This document shows, one piece after another, positions 34,166 through 61,186 of a stretch of 64,000 nt of DNA. This DNA comes from an uncultured Ktedonobacterales bacterium. Lineage in GTDB: Bacteria; Chloroflexota; Ktedonobacteria; Ktedonobacterales; Ktedonobacteraceae. The notes under the pieces were generated by a model. That model was not told where the DNA came from. It was given only the letters and a program-made list of their open reading frames with translations, and did not search any database. The position numbers and the translations under genes were made by a program. Where the stretch lies: positions 8,188 through 72,187 of the forward strand of contig CAZZVE010000006.1 in assembly GCA_964657325.1 (NCBI GenBank). Reading direction: 5' to 3'. How positions within the stretch are numbered: the stretch's first letter is position 1; each line of letters starts with the position of its first letter.

Positions 34166-35305
34166 TTATTTCCCTTTTATTTTGTTCAGGAAGTAGTCAA
34201 AAATCCACTCGGTATCCTCTGGTCCTGGTGTCGCTTCTGGATGAAATTGCACCGAAAAGAAGGGTAGCGTGTTGTGTTGCATACCTTCGTTGCTGCCATC
34301 GTTCGCATTCGTAAACCAGGGAGTAAACTCAGGTGGTAGTGTCCCTACAGCGAAGCCATGATTTTGTGTGGTAATGTAACAGCGTTTTGATCCCTCTAAT
34401 AAACATGGCTGGTTTTGACTGCGGTGTCCGAATTTGAGCTTATAGGTATCGCCACCCGCTGCGAGTGCCAGGAGTTGATGACCCAGGCAAATGCCAAGTG
34501 TAGGTATTTTCTGCTCTAACGCTGTACGGATGGTCTGAATAGTCTTTTGTGGCGTTTTGGGATTGCCAGGACCGTTGGAAATTAAGAGACCATCGAAGGC
34601 AAAGCCACCCGCGGGCGAGAAGAGATCGTAGTCCCATGGAACGGTAATGACACGGATATCGCGTGCAAGAAGCGATTGTACAATATTATGTTTCGCACCA
34701 CAATCGAGCAGGGCAAGCGTGATAGCACCGCTACCATCCACGGAAACTCGTGGATTTGAGACCTGAGCTACAAGATTGTCGGTGTTCGTGTCATGAAAGG
34801 GAATATCGGAGTCAAAGACAATTTTGCCGAGCATCGCACCGTAGTCGCGGATATGCTTTGTCAGGAAACGTGTGTCTTTGATTTCCAACGCGGGTACTTT
34901 TTGCTCCTGCAGCCATGTACCGAGGTTCATGATACTTTGACGATGTGAAGGCTCATCAGTATAGTTTGAGACGATTAGGCCAGAAACTTGCACTTTGTCA
35001 CTTTCCCAACAAGAGCGTTCAGGCACACCGTAGTTACCGATGAGCGGATAGGTCATATTGAGGATTTGGCCTGCAAACGAGGCATCGGTGAGTGACTCAG
35101 GGTAGCCGACCATGCCAGTGCTAAAGACGACCTCGCCAGTGGTGGGACCTTCATAACCGAATGATATTCCCTCCAGAATTGTGCCATCCTCGAGAATGAG
35201 CTTTCCATATCTAGGTGTTTTTCTTTGGGCGACTGTAGACATAGGACCAACTTCCGTTAACAAATTATTTTGTAGTGTCATATATGACATGTTCATCCCT
35301 TTCAT
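34166..35305 (-). CDS. carA: carbamoyl-phosphate synthase small subunit (glutaminase)
   Basis: GATase triad context GICLGHQ, FHPE. The ATG overlaps the pyrB TAA (TAATG). Confidence 0.95.
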   Translation of the reverse strand: MKGMNMSYMTLQNNLLTEVGPMSTVAQRKTPRYGKLILEDGTILEGISFGYEGPTTGEVVFSTGMVGYPESLTDASFAGQILNMTYPLIGNYGVPERSCWESDKVQVSGLIVSNYTDEPSHRQSIMNLGTWLQEQKVPALEIKDTRFLTKHIRDYGAMLGKIVFDSDIPFHDTNTDNLVAQVSNPRVSVDGSGAITLALLDCGAKHNIVQSLLARDIRVITVPWDYDLFSPAGGFAFDGLLISNGPGNPKTPQKTIQTIRTALEQKIPTLGICLGHQLLALAAGGDTYKLKFGHRSQNQPCLLEGSKRCYITTQNHGFAVGTLPPEFTPWFTNANDGSNEGMQHNTLPFFSVQFHPEATPGPEDTEWIFDYFLNKIKGK

Positions 35306-36300
35306 TACGCTCTTCCAAGCACTAATGCAAGCAAGGCCATGCGTGTATACAACCCGTTACGAATTTGTGAACGTAGATACACGGCGCGAGGATCGCGATC
35401 AACAGAAGGATCAATTGTTCCCACACGCGGTAACGGGTCCATCAGAATCATATTCTTGTTGGCGTACCGTTCCATAAGCTGTGGTGTCACATTGAACGTC
35501 TCTTGCGCGACGCCGTTGTAGTCTTCAAGAGAGGCAAAGCGTTCTTTTTGTATTCGTGTCCAATACCAAAAATCGCAATCATAAGGTATATCTTGTTCAC
35601 GAGTGATCTCAATAATATTGATACCACATATTCGCAAATACTGGTAGTCGTCGCGTGCTAATCGTAGGCGTTGTGGCGAGAGCAGATACACAGTATTACC
35701 CTTAAACAGGGAAAGACCTCTGATAAGCGAGTGAATGGTACGGCTATTAAGCAAGTCCCCAACAAGCAATCCAGTGAGGTTATCAAGTCTGCCAAATCTT
35801 TCATAGAGCGTGTAGAGGTCGAGCAGCGTTTGCGTTGGATGCTCATTATTGCCATCCCCCGCATTGATGATCGGTACATATTCAGCTGCCTCTGCTGCCT
35901 GTTTCGCGGCACCAGAGATTTTATGACGCATCACAATCGCATCTGAGTATGCCTCAAAGACACGAATGGTGTCTTCAAACGATTCACCTTTATACACGGA
36001 GGTGACAGTTTCAGGGTTTTGAATATCAAGCGTCTGACCACCAAGTCGCTTGATTGCTGTCGCGAACGAGCCAAATGTTCTGCTGGAAGGCTCATAGAAT
36101 AGTAACGAGGTTATTGTGCCCGCGAGTAAAGTAGAGGGCTCACAGTTGAGAGCAAGACGTTTCATAGTATGTGTGAGAGTAAAAAGCTGATAGAAGTCTT
36201 CCCGTAAAAATTGATCGAGAGAAACAATATCTTTTCCTTTAAAGGTTCCAGCGATAGGTGTCAGCGTGTTGCGTGCCATAGAAAGTGTAGTATTGCTCAT
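35305..36300 (-). CDS. pyrB: aspartate carbamoyltransferase catalytic subunit
   Basis: FYEPSSRT, HPTQ and the HPLPR-type motif (DPLPRV). GGGAGGG RBS before ATG 36300. The ORF-track start at 36402 lies inside the leader. Confidence 0.93.
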   Translation of the reverse strand: MSNTTLSMARNTLTPIAGTFKGKDIVSLDQFLREDFYQLFTLTHTMKRLALNCEPSTLLAGTITSLLFYEPSSRTFGSFATAIKRLGGQTLDIQNPETVTSVYKGESFEDTIRVFEAYSDAIVMRHKISGAAKQAAEAAEYVPIINAGDGNNEHPTQTLLDLYTLYERFGRLDNLTGLLVGDLLNSRTIHSLIRGLSLFKGNTVYLLSPQRLRLARDDYQYLRICGINIIEITREQDIPYDCDFWYWTRIQKERFASLEDYNGVAQETFNVTPQLMERYANKNMILMDPLPRVGTIDPSVDRDPRAVYLRSQIRNGLYTRMALLALVLGRA

Positions 36301-36328
36301 ATTCCCTCCCAGGATAGTAAAAAAGGTC

Positions 36329-36365
36329 AAAAAAAATTCCTCACCCCTGGAAACGGGATGAGGAA
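36329..36365 (-). terminator. intrinsic terminator (attenuator) in the pyrB leader
   Basis: The RNA UUCCUCAUCCC-GUUUCCA-GGGGUGAGGAA forms an 11-bp stem including one G-U pair, followed by U8. It ends about 18 nt before the pyrB RBS. Confidence 0.7.
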
Positions 36366-36478
36366 GAAAAATCACATTCTTGAAAAAAGCCATCTGGCCC
36401 ATCTATAAGATGGGTTATGAGGCAATACATTCTCTGTATTGTTGCTTGTATTGTCACAAGCCAGATGGTTGAAGTCAT
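36341..36478 (-). promoter_or_regulatory. candidate 45-codon pyr leader peptide ORF
   Basis: From AUG 36478 to UGA 36343-36341. It encodes MTSTIWLVTIQATIQRMYCLITHLIDGPDGFFQECDFSSSSRFQG. The stop lies in the 3' arm of the terminator hairpin. The SD is weak (AAGG). Confidence 0.4.
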
Positions 36479-36536
36479 GATGATACGTGCCTTTTCAAAG
36501 CATAGAGTGTTTAGGATACTGTTTCAAATTGCTAAA

Positions 36537-36566
36537 ATTATACCCGCTTCATCTCTATCATGTCAA
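36537..36566 (-). promoter_or_regulatory. consensus sigma70-type promoter for the pyr operon
   Basis: Minus-strand TTGACA (36566-36561), an 18-nt spacer, then TATAAT (36542-36537). Both hexamers are perfect. Confidence 0.6.
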
Positions 36567-36604
36567 GAGCCTGATGACCTTTGACAATGGAACACGGCAA
36601 TGAC

Positions 36605-36790
36605 GGTAGGGGCAGCAATTCCCGTTTTTTTGTGGTCAATATTCATTAGGGACCAATGATGCTGTTTCACAAATGAATACCGATATGTCATGTGTAGGAC
36701 GCAATTGATTGCGCCCCTACAGCATCCGTGTATTTTGTGAAACAGCATCATCGGTTCCGTATTCATTTGTGAAACAGCATTATCGCGTCA
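36605..36790. repeat. composite cluster of palindromic-unit repeats
   Basis: Contains GGTAGGGGCAGCAATT (a half unit of the 10938 element) and the 27-bp palindrome GTAGGACGCAATTGATTGCGCCCCTAC (36694-36720). It also has the inverted pair GGGACCAATGATGCTGTTTCACAAA / TTTGTGAAACAGCATCATCGGTTCC and a direct repeat of TTTGTGAAACAGCAT. Confidence 0.85.
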
Positions 36791-36925
36791 TCTTGGCCTC
36801 TTGATTGCCATGACTATGCAATACCTCGGTCCCTGCAACTCTGTAACTCTTGCTTTTTATCTGTAGAAACGGTACATAATAACAAGAGTTACCACGGTTT
36901 TTTCCGACTACATAAGGACACTATA

Positions 36926-37591
36926 ATGATTAGTAATTTCACGCCACAGGACTTTATACGGCAAGACGAAACCGACGACAGCAATTTCTATGTTGCACCG
37001 CGTATGGTTGTACATATTGATGATGTTGCGATTGCGGCAGTAACAGATGCTATCCGTCGTCATGTTCCTACAAATGCTCACATTCTTGATATTATGAGTA
37101 GTTATCGCTCACATCTACCAGCAGAGGCTTCCTACTCAGAGGTGGTAGGATTGGGAATGAACGAGGCAGAATTGAAGGCAAATTCGCAATTGACACGTTT
37201 TGTTGTTCAGAACCTCAATAAAAATCCACAATTGCCCTTTGAAGACGGTCACTTTGACGCGGTTATCAATACTGTCTCGGTTCAATATCTCAAACGTCCC
37301 GTTGAGGTATTTCGTGAGGTTGCGCGAGTACTCAAGCCAGGAGGCGTTTCACTGGTAAGTTTTTCCGATAGGATGTTTCCTACAAAAGCTGTGCGTATCT
37401 GGTATGAGGGGAACAACGAAAGTCATATAGCACTTGTGCAGAAATATTATGAACTAGCTGGCGGCTTTTCTAAAATCGAGGTCGAACAGCACGTGGACGC
37501 ACAAGCATCATGGTTCCGTAGAGGTCACGATCCACTCTTCATCGTACTTGGCATACGAACGGGCACAGAAGAAGATACTGCACAAAGATAG
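36926..37591 (+). CDS. class I SAM-dependent methyltransferase
   Basis: Methyltransferase-11-type core ILDIMSS...FDAVINTVSVQYL..P...F.E..RVLKPGG. Confidence 0.75.
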   Translation: MISNFTPQDFIRQDETDDSNFYVAPRMVVHIDDVAIAAVTDAIRRHVPTNAHILDIMSSYRSHLPAEASYSEVVGLGMNEAELKANSQLTRFVVQNLNKNPQLPFEDGHFDAVINTVSVQYLKRPVEVFREVARVLKPGGVSLVSFSDRMFPTKAVRIWYEGNNESHIALVQKYYELAGGFSKIEVEQHVDAQASWFRRGHDPLFIVLGIRTGTEEDTAQR

Positions 37592-38200: not shown

Positions 38201-38393
38201 TCGATGAGCCTCCTCAATACCAATAAAGCATTCCTCAACAACTATAACACATTTCTCTTTTCGTACATGAGAGTAAACATAGCTTCCGGGGCGATATCCA
38301 AAAAGTACTTATTTGGGCCTGTTTCTCACCACACATTCGTGAAGTAGCGTACAATACTCACACAGTTTATGATCTATGGTAGTTATAGAGGGA

Positions 38394-40199
38394 ATGAGCA
38401 TGGGTAGACGCCTCGGACTTGTCGTGGGTGTCAATTCCTACCAGGACAATACATTTCAGCCGCTTCAGTTCGCTGAAAACGATGCACGCGCGTTTGCTCA
38501 GTGGCTTGTAAACGAGAAGGGTGGAAAATGGGCACCCGCAGATGTGCAACATGTATATAGCATAAATGCCACAAGAGACCTCATTGAGTCTCTTGTACTA
38601 CAACTTTGCCTCTCGATTGCCCAACCTGATGATCTTGTGCTCATTTATATCGCCAGCCATGCCTTTCTCGATGAGAGAAATGGTGACGGTTATCTTGCAC
38701 TGTCGGACACCTTCTATAGAAATCCCAGTACAGGTCTACACCTTTCCTTACTAGCACAGCAAGTGATGACACAAAGTCGTGCAGCTAATATCGTGTTCAT
38801 ACTCGATTCGTTCCAAACGGGTCAAGCATGGGGTACACGGCAAAACTCACCCTACGATGTTCAGCCACTTTTGGGTACCGCACTTCTGCAAGGATTACAG
38901 CAACAACAGGAACGAATTATACTTGGCTCATGTCGTGGTAATGCCTTTAGTGCAGAGGCAGGAGAACGTGGTTTAGGTCTGCTGATGTATCGTATGATAG
39001 TTGGTTTAAGTAGTGCTGCAACCGATCCGATAACAGGAAGCGTTACACTACAAACACTGTATACCTATCTTGCAAATAACTTAGCAATGCAGCAACGCCC
39101 ACAAGTTTTTGGACAAGCTCCCAACCCCATCATGCTAGTGGGGAACGAATATCTACAGCAACAACCAGTACAAACCATGCGTCCAGAGAATACTCCTGTG
39201 TATGCAGCAACTGTACCACAAACGCCCCAAGGTGCGGTAGTACAACAGGGAGCGTATAATGCGACGGCTACTGCCCAGTTAGCACCCTCGTCTCAGCAGA
39301 GACAAAGAACTACATCTGGACAACTTCATTCCTCTGAAATTGAGCAACACCGACAGCAGCAGAGCGCATTCCTTCTCGACTCAGCACTGCAACAGTTTCA
39401 GGCGCAACACCCAGAAGAGGCACTACGCTTCATAGATCAAGCACTGCAAATTACGCCTGGAGAGAGTGCGGGATTGACCCTGAAAGGGCAAATTCTGGGT
39501 ACAATGGGCCGATTTCCAGAGGCACTCATGGCTGTTGATCAGTTACGGCAACAAGAACCAGATAACGCGCTTGCATGGAGTATGGGCGCAGTGCTATTAA
39601 CGAATATGGGACGCCATCAGGAAGCACTCGCCGCGATTGAACGTTCTCTTGAACTTGATGCGAGCAATACGGAGAGTTATGCTATCAAGACAGACATTAT
39701 GTCGAGCATCGCAATTGCACAAAATAAAGATAAGACACTACCTAAAAACGAGTTAATCGCGTCAGAAAAAAGACGTGGTGGACCATTATCTTTTCTACTA
39801 AGTATGGGGCTACAGTTTGTAGGCTTGTTGCTCGGTATCGTGGGTGGACTTCTGCCGATTATTCGTCCAACGCTACCAATAACACTCTCATTGCTTTTAG
39901 AGAGTTTGGGGTTAGCTATCTTATGTGTAAACGCGGCACGAGGTGCTTATCGCTATGGCTTCCTACGTGTTCTCGTGACACTTTTCTTTAGTCTTCTCCC
40001 AGTCGCACTTCTCGGTATTAGTATAGGCTATCGTCCCGCCTATAGGAAAATCATTTTTGAATTGCAAGCCCATCCTGTGTTCTTAGTACCGCTCCTCTTT
40101 CTTGGTCTGTGGCTCGCCGTAGCAGCAGTCGTACCAGATATTCTAGCAATCATCGCGTTTATCAGCGGAATGATCACAGGAGTAAGACGAAGAAGGTAA
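38394..40199 (+). CDS. caspase-fold (peptidase C14-like) / TPR / multi-pass membrane protein, catalytic Cys absent
   Basis: LGLVVGVNSY..L.FAENDA, YIASHAF (His position), ILDSFQTG (Phe where Cys is expected). A Q-rich linker, about 3 TPRs, then 4-5 C-terminal hydrophobic helices. The start may be 38376, 38394 or 38400. Confidence 0.75.
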   Translation: MSMGRRLGLVVGVNSYQDNTFQPLQFAENDARAFAQWLVNEKGGKWAPADVQHVYSINATRDLIESLVLQLCLSIAQPDDLVLIYIASHAFLDERNGDGYLALSDTFYRNPSTGLHLSLLAQQVMTQSRAANIVFILDSFQTGQAWGTRQNSPYDVQPLLGTALLQGLQQQQERIILGSCRGNAFSAEAGERGLGLLMYRMIVGLSSAATDPITGSVTLQTLYTYLANNLAMQQRPQVFGQAPNPIMLVGNEYLQQQPVQTMRPENTPVYAATVPQTPQGAVVQQGAYNATATAQLAPSSQQRQRTTSGQLHSSEIEQHRQQQSAFLLDSALQQFQAQHPEEALRFIDQALQITPGESAGLTLKGQILGTMGRFPEALMAVDQLRQQEPDNALAWSMGAVLLTNMGRHQEALAAIERSLELDASNTESYAIKTDIMSSIAIAQNKDKTLPKNELIASEKRRGGPLSFLLSMGLQFVGLLLGIVGGLLPIIRPTLPITLSLLLESLGLAILCVNAARGAYRYGFLRVLVTLFFSLLPVALLGISIGYRPAYRKIIFELQAHPVFLVPLLFLGLWLAVAAVVPDILAIIAFISGMITGVRRRR

Positions 40200-60988: not shown

Positions 60989-61186
60989 GGAACGTAGAAT
61001 GTAGGGACCGATGATGCCGTTTCACAAATTCCTATGGCTAGGTCGGTTGTAGGGGCGCAATTGATCGCGCCCACGTTCCCGATTGATCGTGCCCCTACAG
61101 TCTCGTGATTATTTGGTTAAAGAGCATTATCGCGTCCTTGTTGGCCATCGAAATACTGAAAAGGACGCGATAAATCGGTCCCTACA
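60989..61186. repeat. nested palindromic-unit cluster
   Basis: The outer pair is GTAGGGACCG (61001-61010) / CGGTCCCTAC (61177-61186). Inside are GTAGGGGCGCAATTGATCGCGCCC..GATTGATCGTGCCCCTAC (61049-61098) and ATCGCGTCCTT..AAGGACGCGAT (61129-61171). Confidence 0.88.

Follow-up and report, generated by a model that had tools for sequence, protein, structure and literature searches.

Introduction

Control of the pyrBI operon is the textbook case of "repression without a repressor." To our knowledge, both of its layers, namely, the coupling of a lead ribosome to an RNA polymerase limited by uridine triphosphate (UTP) and the stuttering that yields AAUUUn transcripts, have been worked out only for enteric bacteria, and we know of nothing on transcription-translation coupling in the phylum Chloroflexota. 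For rph-pyrE of Escherichia coli, Turnbough and Switzer are said to have set out in 2008 how UTP-sensitive coupling between polymerase and ribosome on an upstream open reading frame (ORF) decides termination before pyrE. The pyr leader of Thermus ZO5, as reportedly described by Van de Casteele et al. in 1997, combines a leader peptide with PyrR, the operon opening with pyrR and a PyrR box lying where the ORF begins. Here, we examine the leader of a pyrimidine operon (pyrB-carA-carB-dihydroorotase-like amidohydrolase, minus strand) in a 64-kb stretch of DNA, referred to as the window, from contig CAZZVE010000006.1 of an uncultured soil bacterium of the order Ktedonobacterales (family Ktedonobacteraceae, class Ktedonobacteria, Chloroflexota). 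No description of this leader was found in the searchable literature on pyrimidine attenuation in Ktedonobacteria and Chloroflexi.

At E. coli pyrBI, high UTP causes polymerase to slip so that AAUUUn transcripts are released, which provides approximately 7-fold control (PMC7039003, PMC6524683). In the pyrL leader, a ribosome close behind the polymerase suppresses the terminator hairpin, and in E. coli lacking EF-P a ribosome stall upstream of this hairpin raises termination 26-fold (PMC5021804). Terminators are repressed when they lie within approximately 27 nucleotides (nt) of the last codon to be translated (PMC4824070).

In our judgment, the Ktedonobacterales leader is rather likely to attenuate transcription by way of coupled translation, in the manner of E. 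coli pyrBI, and UTP is probably sensed a second time, at initiation. As at pyrBI of E. coli and Salmonella, it has a sigma-70 promoter with a transcript predicted to begin AAUUUG, and its ORF, about 45 codons long compared with 44 in E. coli, has a Shine-Dalgarno (SD) sequence of its own and runs into an intrinsic terminator just upstream of pyrB. Both leaders are rich in U and other pyrimidines ahead of this terminator and within its 5' arm, and in principle, neither requires a repressor protein. Unlike pyrBI, the operon is pyrB-carA-carB-amidohydrolase with no pyrI, the host belongs to Chloroflexota, the encoded peptide has a conserved core whose codons take part in a long-range helix, and the element is found at two operons. 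The E. coli pyrL ORF passes the terminator and stops 20 nt beyond its U8, whereas the Ktedonobacteria ORF usually stops inside the hairpin. Homology to PyrL was considered and rejected: E. coli PyrL scores 117 and 120 bits on PF08052 and NF007587, respectively, whereas neither the window peptide nor three diverse Ktedonobacteria peptides matched these models at an E value of ≤10. The leader therefore appears to be analogous, not homologous, to pyrL.

Results

Promoter and predicted transcript start

A preliminary description of this DNA, made without database searches, had reported a perfect TTGACA-18-TATAAT promoter on the minus strand (36566-36537) upstream of pyrB and had proposed a pyrBI-style logic for the leader. 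The promoter matches sigma-70 at 12 of 12 positions and is the sole such site in the region. That description had missed AATTTG at the predicted start, which strengthens the analogy with pyrBI. From the -10 hexamer to the start, the window reads TATAAT-TTTAGC-AATTTG, and AATTTG occurs only once in a promoter context within the 64 kb (36530-36525). The same hexamer is the initially transcribed sequence of E. coli pyrBI, for which TATAAT-GCCGGAC-AATTTG was confirmed directly; it thus lies 6 nt past the -10 hexamer in Ktedonobacteria versus 7 nt in E. coli.

A PyrB-based scan using one genome per species provided 80 loci, nearly all from Ktedonobacteria, and in 62 of these the promoter conforms to the pattern TTGAC[AT]-N17/18-TATA[AC]T-N6-AATTTG. 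AATTTG is invariant and located exactly 6 nt past the -10 hexamer in all 62, and the intervening 6 nt vary. Variants of the hexamer were found in Thermogemmatispora (GATTTG; L032 to L036 and L044, where L numbers denote the loci compared) and in L024 (AGTTTG). The window start has the sequence properties of UTP-sensitive reiterative promoters such as those of pyrBI, carAB (P1), codBA, and upp, namely, a run of at least three T residues in the nontemplate strand near the start, a purine start, and a canonical distance from the -10 hexamer. By analogy with E. coli pyrBI, AAUUUUn stuttering may therefore take place at high UTP in Ktedonobacteria.

The leader ORF is open into the terminator

The 45-codon ORF begins 52 nt from the predicted 5' end of the transcript and, as the preliminary description had stated, runs from the AUG at 36478 to a UGA (36343-36341) within the 3' arm of the terminator. 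A weak SD sequence had been raised as a caveat to its translation. This caveat can be softened, as AAAAGG is conserved at a fixed distance of approximately 12 nt, and one clade (the L101 type) has GGAG 9 nt before the ATG in place of the A-rich sequence. Across 57 loci, A[AG]A?GG is conserved 8 to 13 nt ahead of the start codon. To keep start assignment independent of ORF length, the start was set as the first ATG or GTG 8 to 13 nt past an A[AG]A?GG located at +25 to +75.

The frame was open from this start to the 5' arm of the terminator in all 57 Ktedonobacteria pyrB leaders with the conserved SD-start arrangement (33 to 58 codons). The +1 and +2 frames served as controls and were open in 9 and 18 of the 57, respectively, and composition-matched shuffles were open in 13.5% of trials. 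With greedy representatives used to limit kinship, the joint chance probability of an open ORF was 10^-8.7 for 10 representatives sharing <55% mutual identity and 10^-15.5 for 17 sharing <60%. The median pairwise nucleotide identity of the ORF region was 54%, versus 45% for shuffled pairs. Relatives that keep the hairpins but lose the frame had been named beforehand as grounds for abandoning the pyrBI comparison; what was seen is the opposite.

Counted from the terminator arm, the UGA lies in the loop (+11 to +13), in the 3' arm (+20 to +25, as in the window), just past the U tract (+36 to +38), or farther downstream, and it never precedes the hairpin in the leaders compared. The frame used across the hairpin also varies by clade, with peptides that end in SSSSR or FLPHPIDSGVRNFF and others that continue through SSPYLSRGEEFF. 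As frame and stop position vary by clade and openness is kept, selection for translation into the 5' arm is indicated. The ORF thus appears to be under selection to reach the terminator and is predicted to be translated.

Terminator

The terminator lies where it had been placed (36365-36329) and consists of an 11-bp stem with six G-C pairs and a 7-nt loop (36365-36337) followed by U8 (36336-36329). From its end, it is 18 nt to the GGGAGGG of pyrB (36310-36304) and 28 nt to the pyrB start codon. A search of 1.4 kb for terminator-like patterns found 1 match, with 1.1 expected from shuffles; the pattern in a single sequence is therefore not decisive, and it is conservation across approximately 180 related loci that decides. 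The sequence CCUCAYCCC...GGGGUGAGG and a run of at least seven T residues are conserved across the class. Among 109 distinct terminators, the 5' arm is on average 90% pyrimidine (minimum, 75%) and the 3' arm 10%. Pair counts anchored at the base of the stem were blurred by register shifts and were used qualitatively only.

Distribution and a second pyrimidine operon

The combination of promoter, ORF, and terminator recurs in the approximately 180 related loci and was recognized in Ktedonobacter, Thermosporothrix, Thermogemmatispora, Dictyobacter, Tengunoibacter, and Ktedonosporobacter. It is kept class-wide although PyrB is only about 70% identical. Scanning metagenome contigs with the pattern of promoter plus initially transcribed sequence identified 120 loci, of which 53 lead into pyrB and 46 into a second operon, with 18 on contigs too short to assign and 3 that are chance matches or rearrangements. 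The second operon (examples at L087, L096, L099, L101, L107, and L148) encodes a 348-amino-acid (aa) AsnRS/AsnA-like class II core without an anticodon-binding domain, followed by PyrE (TIGR01367) and PyrF (TIGR02127).

In these pyrE-type leaders, the ORF was open to the terminator in 23 of 24 distinct sequences (the other frames in 2 and 6), the sole failure being a mispicked GTG start. Since the leader precedes two pyrimidine operons, the element tracks pyrimidine biosynthesis and not one gene or carbamoyl-phosphate/arginine metabolism. The first gene of the second pyrimidine operon is an AsnRS-like paralogue.

Leader RNA fold

The predicted minimum free energy (MFE) of the 230-nt leader is -65.8 kcal/mol, compared with -49.4 ± 4.1 for shuffles (z = -4.0), and none of 200 dinucleotide shuffles folded as well. 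The MFE fold is a four-way junction. The preliminary description had proposed a three-way structure, of which the closing helix (36468-36461 with 36397-36390) stands, whereas an additional hairpin at 36461-36444 makes the junction four-way. Both hairpins that it had drawn within the junction, CAAUACA-GAGAA-UGUAUUG and the CCCAUCU/AGAUGGG stem, are present, but the loop of the latter is UAU in the sequence and not AUA. The CUUUUUU past the closing helix was likewise found, with its U6 at 36388-36383.

Across the family, codons ~4 to 8 of the ORF, frequently including a Trp codon, pair with the G-P-G codons of the peptide core described below. Cognate segments of 102 distinct leaders pair at -13.7 kcal/mol, compared with -11.9 for noncognate and -9.4 for shuffled segments (Wilcoxon test, 5e-8, a statistic that ignores phylogeny). 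Compensatory changes were found in the closing helix and the adjoining hairpin among close relatives; this hairpin, CCCAUCU-UAU-AGAUGGG, is kept in 10 of 10 close relatives, two of which have a compensatory C-G to U-A change. The long-range helix thus appears to covary. Stem conservation, which the preliminary description had looked to, is otherwise not general. L008 lacks both GCUUGUG-ACAA-UACAAGC (36461-36444) and CAAUACA-GAGAA-UGUAUUG (36441-36423), L006 has deletions in and beside the latter, and the latter is missing from the consensus structure. These two inner hairpins appear to be clade-specific filler, and only the closing helix and its adjoining hairpin appear conserved.

At pyrBI, a hairpin and a U-rich pause region upstream of the attenuator couple the ribosome to the polymerase; a candidate counterpart in the window is the helix followed by U6, plus a U5 run. 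A run of at least four U residues within the last 40 nt before the terminator was found in 41 of 61 loci (U content, 0.33 versus 0.27).

A conserved peptide core

The leader peptides share a core with the consensus H-x-x-D/E-G-P-G, which in extended form reads H-x-x-(D/E)-G-P-G-(A/V)-V-F-P-E. It was found in 49 of 62 loci, the 13 without it including Ktedonobacter racemifer, and it is also kept in the leaders of the second operon. Entropies at codon positions 1, 2, and 3 were 0.62, 0.39, and 1.46 for D, 0.25, 0.41, and 1.51 for G, and 0, 0, and 1.82 for P, the zeros for P arising by construction since the alignment was anchored on Pro. Pro and Gly are each encoded by all four of their codons. 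In most loci, 32 to 36 nt separate the core Gly codon from the terminator arm, the window having 36 nt; this is roughly the minimal spacing between ribosome and polymerase. Such conservation of the peptide suggests that something beyond the E. coli logic is at work, and one guess is that the core, 11 to 12 codons before the terminator, tunes the speed or position of the ribosome.

The features of the leader are collected in Table 1.

TABLE 1 Features of the pyrB leader and operon start in the window
Feature	Position	Strand	Remarks
-35 hexamer TTGACA	36561-36566	-	TTGAC[AT] kept in 62/80 fetched pyrB loci
-10 hexamer TATAAT	36537-36542	-	Spacer of 18 nt from -35; TATA[AC]T kept in relatives
Initially transcribed sequence AATTTG, candidate UTP-sensitive reiterative transcription site	36525-36530	-	Predicted start A36530
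Shine-Dalgarno-like GAAAAGG	36490-36496	-	11 nt before leader AUG
Leader ORF, 45 codons + UGA	36341-36478	-	Putative peptide MTSTIWLVTIQATIQRMYCLITHLIDGPDGFFQECDFSSSSRFQG, then stop; stop inside terminator 3' arm
Closing helix, 5' strand CCAUCUGG	36461-36468	-	Codons 4 to 7, including Trp codon
Two inner hairpins, GCUUGUG-ACAA-UACAAGC and CAAUACA-GAGAA-UGUAUUG	36423-36460	-	Both in MFE fold
Hairpin CCCAUCU-UAU-AGAUGGG, proposed pause hairpin	36398-36414	-	Directly 5' of closing-helix 3' strand
Codons for core H23-L-I-D-G-P-D-G30	36389-36412	-	Low entropy at codon positions 1 and 2, high at 3
Closing helix, 3' strand CCAGAUGG	36390-36397	-	Pro-Asp-Gly codons of conserved motif
U6 run, candidate UTP-sensitive pause site	36383-36388	-	Directly past closing helix
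U5 run	36367-36371	-	Opens pyrimidine-rich stretch toward terminator 5' arm
Intrinsic terminator (attenuator) UUCCUCAUCCC-GUUUCCA-GGGGUGAGGAA + U8	36329-36365	-	
pyrB ribosome-binding site GGGAGGG	36304-36310	-	
pyrB (aspartate carbamoyltransferase), first gene of operon	35305-36300	-	PF02729, PF00185; orthologues recovered

Neighboring genes and sequences

The closest relative by PyrB is a Ktedonobacteraceae metagenome-assembled genome with 99% PyrB identity. The pyrB frame is also open upstream of its ATG at 36300, through the terminator to an ATG at 36402 (36402-36300, minus strand), which would give a 365-aa ORF; the same extension was found in L003 to L006 and not in L001 or L002. This extension is probably incidental, as PyrB homology and the strong ribosome-binding site favor the ATG at 36300. 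The upstream neighbor, a methyltransferase gene (36926-37591), is divergent, which rules out that the terminator belongs to a gene upstream. No family was found for a 67-codon ORF at 36766-36563.

Three copies of a unit of approximately 25 nt, ATGATGCTGTTTCACAAATGAATAC, lie in inverted and direct orientation at 36649-36785, just upstream of the pyr promoter, with a fourth near-copy 24 kb away (61014-61028). Close relatives do not carry the unit at the corresponding position. The copies could represent a small repeat that is mobile or could serve as binding sites for a protein. After the U tract of the terminator, GACCUUUUUUAC (36328-36311, minus strand) is complementary to the leader SD region AAAAGG. 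Within this sequence, GACCUUUUU is kept in the close relatives L001 to L009, with GUCCUUUUU in L005, and a pairing of the two regions in read-through transcripts is possible.

Between the terminator and the first gene, a second conserved element with the consensus GAAAAGG-AYGACCUGUCAAC-CUGUYGU is present in most pyrB and pyrE leaders of Ktedonobacteria, approximately 100 nt past the terminator (position 280 from the transcript start in L047). It was found in L012, L018, L021, L026, L032, L047, L048, and approximately 90 other loci and is absent from the window and its closest relatives (L001 to L009, L015, and L037). It may fold into a 6-bp hairpin whose 10-nt loop is conserved, or it may instead be a site in the DNA that is partly palindromic (ACCTGTC/GACAGGT); it matched no Rfam family.

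In K. racemifer (L026), two tandem matches of 53 to 54 bits to RF00029, the model of group II intron domains V and VI, were found at 1066-1397, about 1.2 kb upstream of the pyr promoter. The window itself contains no Rfam family at the gathering threshold and no tRNA gene in its whole 64 kb. A 607-aa protein with a caspase (Peptidase_C14) domain and TPR repeats is encoded at 38376-40199 on the plus strand.

Discussion

Proposed mechanism

Under the pyrBI-type reading, the consensus sigma-70 promoter would start the transcript at AAUUUG. At high UTP, RNA polymerase would slip on the three template A residues, and nonproductive AAUUUUn transcripts would result, as in E. coli pyrBI. Productive transcripts would carry the 45-codon ORF, the long-range helix, the U runs, and a pyrimidine-rich stretch leading into the 11-bp terminator and its U8. 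The helix and the U6 run may pause polymerase until the first ribosome, loaded at AAAAGG-N11-AUG, melts the helix. When UTP or cytidine triphosphate is scarce, polymerase would move slowly through the pyrimidine-rich stretch and the 5' arm with the ribosome directly behind it; with the ribosome covering the 5' arm, no hairpin would form, and transcription would proceed into pyrB. When pyrimidines are plentiful, polymerase would outrun the ribosome, the hairpin would form, and transcription would stop at U8, 28 nt before the pyrB start.

The pyrBI-style logic of the preliminary description is thus supported by the ORF that is open into the terminator in relatives and by the AATTTG start. It is extended by four features, namely, this initially transcribed sequence, the regulon of two operons, the core of the peptide, and the long-range helix.

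A number of points weigh against this reading. The transcription start, termination, translation of the ORF, and dependence on UTP are all inferred from sequence. In L067 and L068 the transcript start is GATCTG, in which the T run is broken, and the ORF and terminator are kept. The U runs of the spacer are not universal, and some clades have none. Conservation of the terminator sequence UCCUCAYCCC...GGGGUGAGGA far exceeds the needs of a hairpin, and the wobble-conserved H-x-x-D/E-G-P-G is not needed by a pure pyrBI mechanism. The second element in most relatives indicates that other regulators exist in the family, and a pyrR gene could be located elsewhere in the genome.

Alternative explanations

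In two alternatives, the primary sensor is a peptide or a protein. In the former, which we regard as unlikely, the nascent peptide would be the sensor, its core slowing or arresting the ribosome approximately 33 nt before the terminator in response to a pyrimidine metabolite or other signal, with polymerase kinetics secondary; a ribosome arrested short of the 5' arm would let the terminator form, and relief of arrest would allow read-through. The amino-acid-level conservation of the core with wobble at codon position 3, its fixed distance from the terminator arm, and its presence in the leaders of the second operon all fit such a sensor. So does Gly-Pro at the peptidyl-transferase center, which is the stall point of SecM-type peptides (HAPIRGSP, RAGP), and the increase in termination caused by a stall upstream of the pyrL hairpin in E. 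coli without EF-P (PMC5021804) shows the direction such an arrest would take. However, the core R-(A/G)-(P/G)-P of RAPP/RAGP-type peptides needs an irreplaceable Arg at the arrest point (PMC12992588), and Arg did not rank with the five most frequent residues at any of the four positions that precede the core Gly. The same codons form the 3' strand of the covarying helix, so conservation may act partly at the RNA level; 13 of 62 loci, including K. racemifer, are without the motif; and no data suggest a ligand. Combining the two ideas, one may picture a two-layer device in which a pyrBI-like race is gated by a peptide module that arrests the lead ribosome on a metabolite of the pyrimidine pathway. 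We give this combination little credence as well; if true, the peptide would sense a metabolite and, through arrest, turn an intrinsic terminator on, the reverse of TnaC and SpeFL, and both pyrimidine operons across the whole class Ktedonobacteria would share this arrest module.

A trans-acting RNA-binding regulator, either PyrR encoded elsewhere or another protein, is a similarly doubtful candidate for the primary sensor. Acting at the 5' untranslated region and SD sequence or at the terminator stem, it would govern whether the leader is translated or whether the hairpin forms, as has reportedly been suggested for the pyr operon of Thermus. AAUUUGARAC, GAAAAGG, and UCCUCA...UGAGGA are conserved beyond the needs of hairpin and coding, a UUCCAC...GUGGAA hairpin abuts the SD sequence in many clades, and the second hairpin or palindrome past the terminator in most relatives hints at a protein factor. 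That second element is, however, absent from the window, and a regulator alone would leave the ORF running into the terminator unexplained unless combined with ribosome-polymerase coupling. The preliminary description had seen neither pyrR nor a clear PyrR box, and the searches agree. RF00515 (the PyrR binding loop) and the other models of Rfam 15 gave no match at an E value of ≤10 in positions 35500 to 37500 of the window, nor did the PyrR and other families at an E value of ≤1 in the leaders of eight diverse relatives. Using tblastn with a PyrR query that scores 273 bits to NF003549, no pyrR gene was found in the window and 200 loci (1.38 Mb) around both pyr operons. The CAGAGA of the GAGAA hairpin loop resembled a PyrR-box core but was rejected, as L008 lacks this hairpin and L006 has a deletion in it.

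That the four-way junction is a ligand-binding aptamer, with the terminator as the expression platform of a riboswitch and the ORF incidental, is highly improbable. The fold is unusually stable (z = -4.0), and a multistem junction followed by a terminator is what a riboswitch would present, but L008 is without two of the three inner hairpins, L006 has deletions around CAAUACA-GAGAA-UGUAUUG, and distant relatives carry unrelated sequence at the place of the junction. Furthermore, there is no Rfam match, the ORF is conserved far beyond chance, and inspection of the sequences by eye revealed no helix that would switch between junction and terminator. No antiterminator was present in the MFE or consensus folds, and one candidate, a pairing of the GGGCCNGGUG region with the terminator 5' arm, was rejected, as by eye it reached no more than 4 to 5 bp and was not conserved. 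Least probable of all is a device without pyrimidine sensing, be it a classic amino acid attenuator of the trp/his type or a gene for a small protein with a constitutive terminator behind it. Ribosome-mediated attenuators do, in general, consist of a short ORF and a terminator downstream of it; yet regulatory codons form no run here, the stretch of Ser codons being a by-product of the terminator arm that is gone where the frame differs, and the stop lies inside or past the terminator and not ahead of the hairpin. The C-terminal frame changes between clades, which speaks against a folded protein. It would make little sense for an essential operon to have a constitutive terminator 28 nt ahead of its first codon, and the element precedes two pyrimidine operons. 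A further candidate, in which a 5' poly(U) produced by productive stuttering masks the A-rich SD sequence GAAAAGG in the manner of pyrG, was set aside because one clade uses GGAG instead.

Relation to other attenuation systems

Like the E. coli pyrE attenuator, the Ktedonobacteria leader also precedes a pyrE-pyrF operon; in E. coli, however, the upstream ORF is full-length rph, which ends just before the hairpin, whereas here it is a dedicated mini-ORF of approximately 40 codons whose stop lies within the hairpin. PyrR attenuation of the Bacillus type (RF00515) likewise relies on an intrinsic terminator in the 5' leader of genes for pyrimidine synthesis, but in Ktedonobacteria there is no PyrR loop, no nearby pyrR, and, by eye, no antiterminator/anti-antiterminator pair, and a translated ORF would overlap the terminator. 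The Thermus ZO5 leader likewise belongs to a nonenterobacterial pyr operon and has a leader ORF overlapping the terminator, differing in its PyrR box, which the Ktedonobacteria leader lacks, and in pyrR, which was not found within the searched 1.38 Mb. Bacillus subtilis pyrG, where reiterative transcription is sensitive to cytidine triphosphate, resembles the present leader in nucleotide sensing by slippage at the 5' end and in a terminator with a pyrimidine-rich 5' arm. There, productive reiterative addition of G makes an antiterminator and no ORF is involved, whereas the TTT after AA in Ktedonobacteria points to the nonproductive pyrBI type. Finally, a short conserved Gly-Pro motif in a cis-regulatory upstream ORF is reminiscent of arrest peptides of the SecM/RAPP type, although the motif lies 11 to 12 codons before the ORF end and not at an arrest point beside the regulated element.

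Implications

An attenuator of the pyrBI type in Ktedonobacteria apparently evolved independently of the enteric one. The presence of both layers in a class of a distant phylum, and at two operons, would make this a general design for sensing the nucleotide pool and not an enterobacterial curiosity, and it would mean that tight transcription-translation coupling operates in Chloroflexota. The approximately 180 natural variants could be used to dissect the real requirements of the mechanism, with the GATCTG, GATTTG, and AGTTTG clades bearing on whether the attenuator can be separated from the initiation layer. New ingredients beyond the E. coli paradigm would be the peptide core and the long-range helix.

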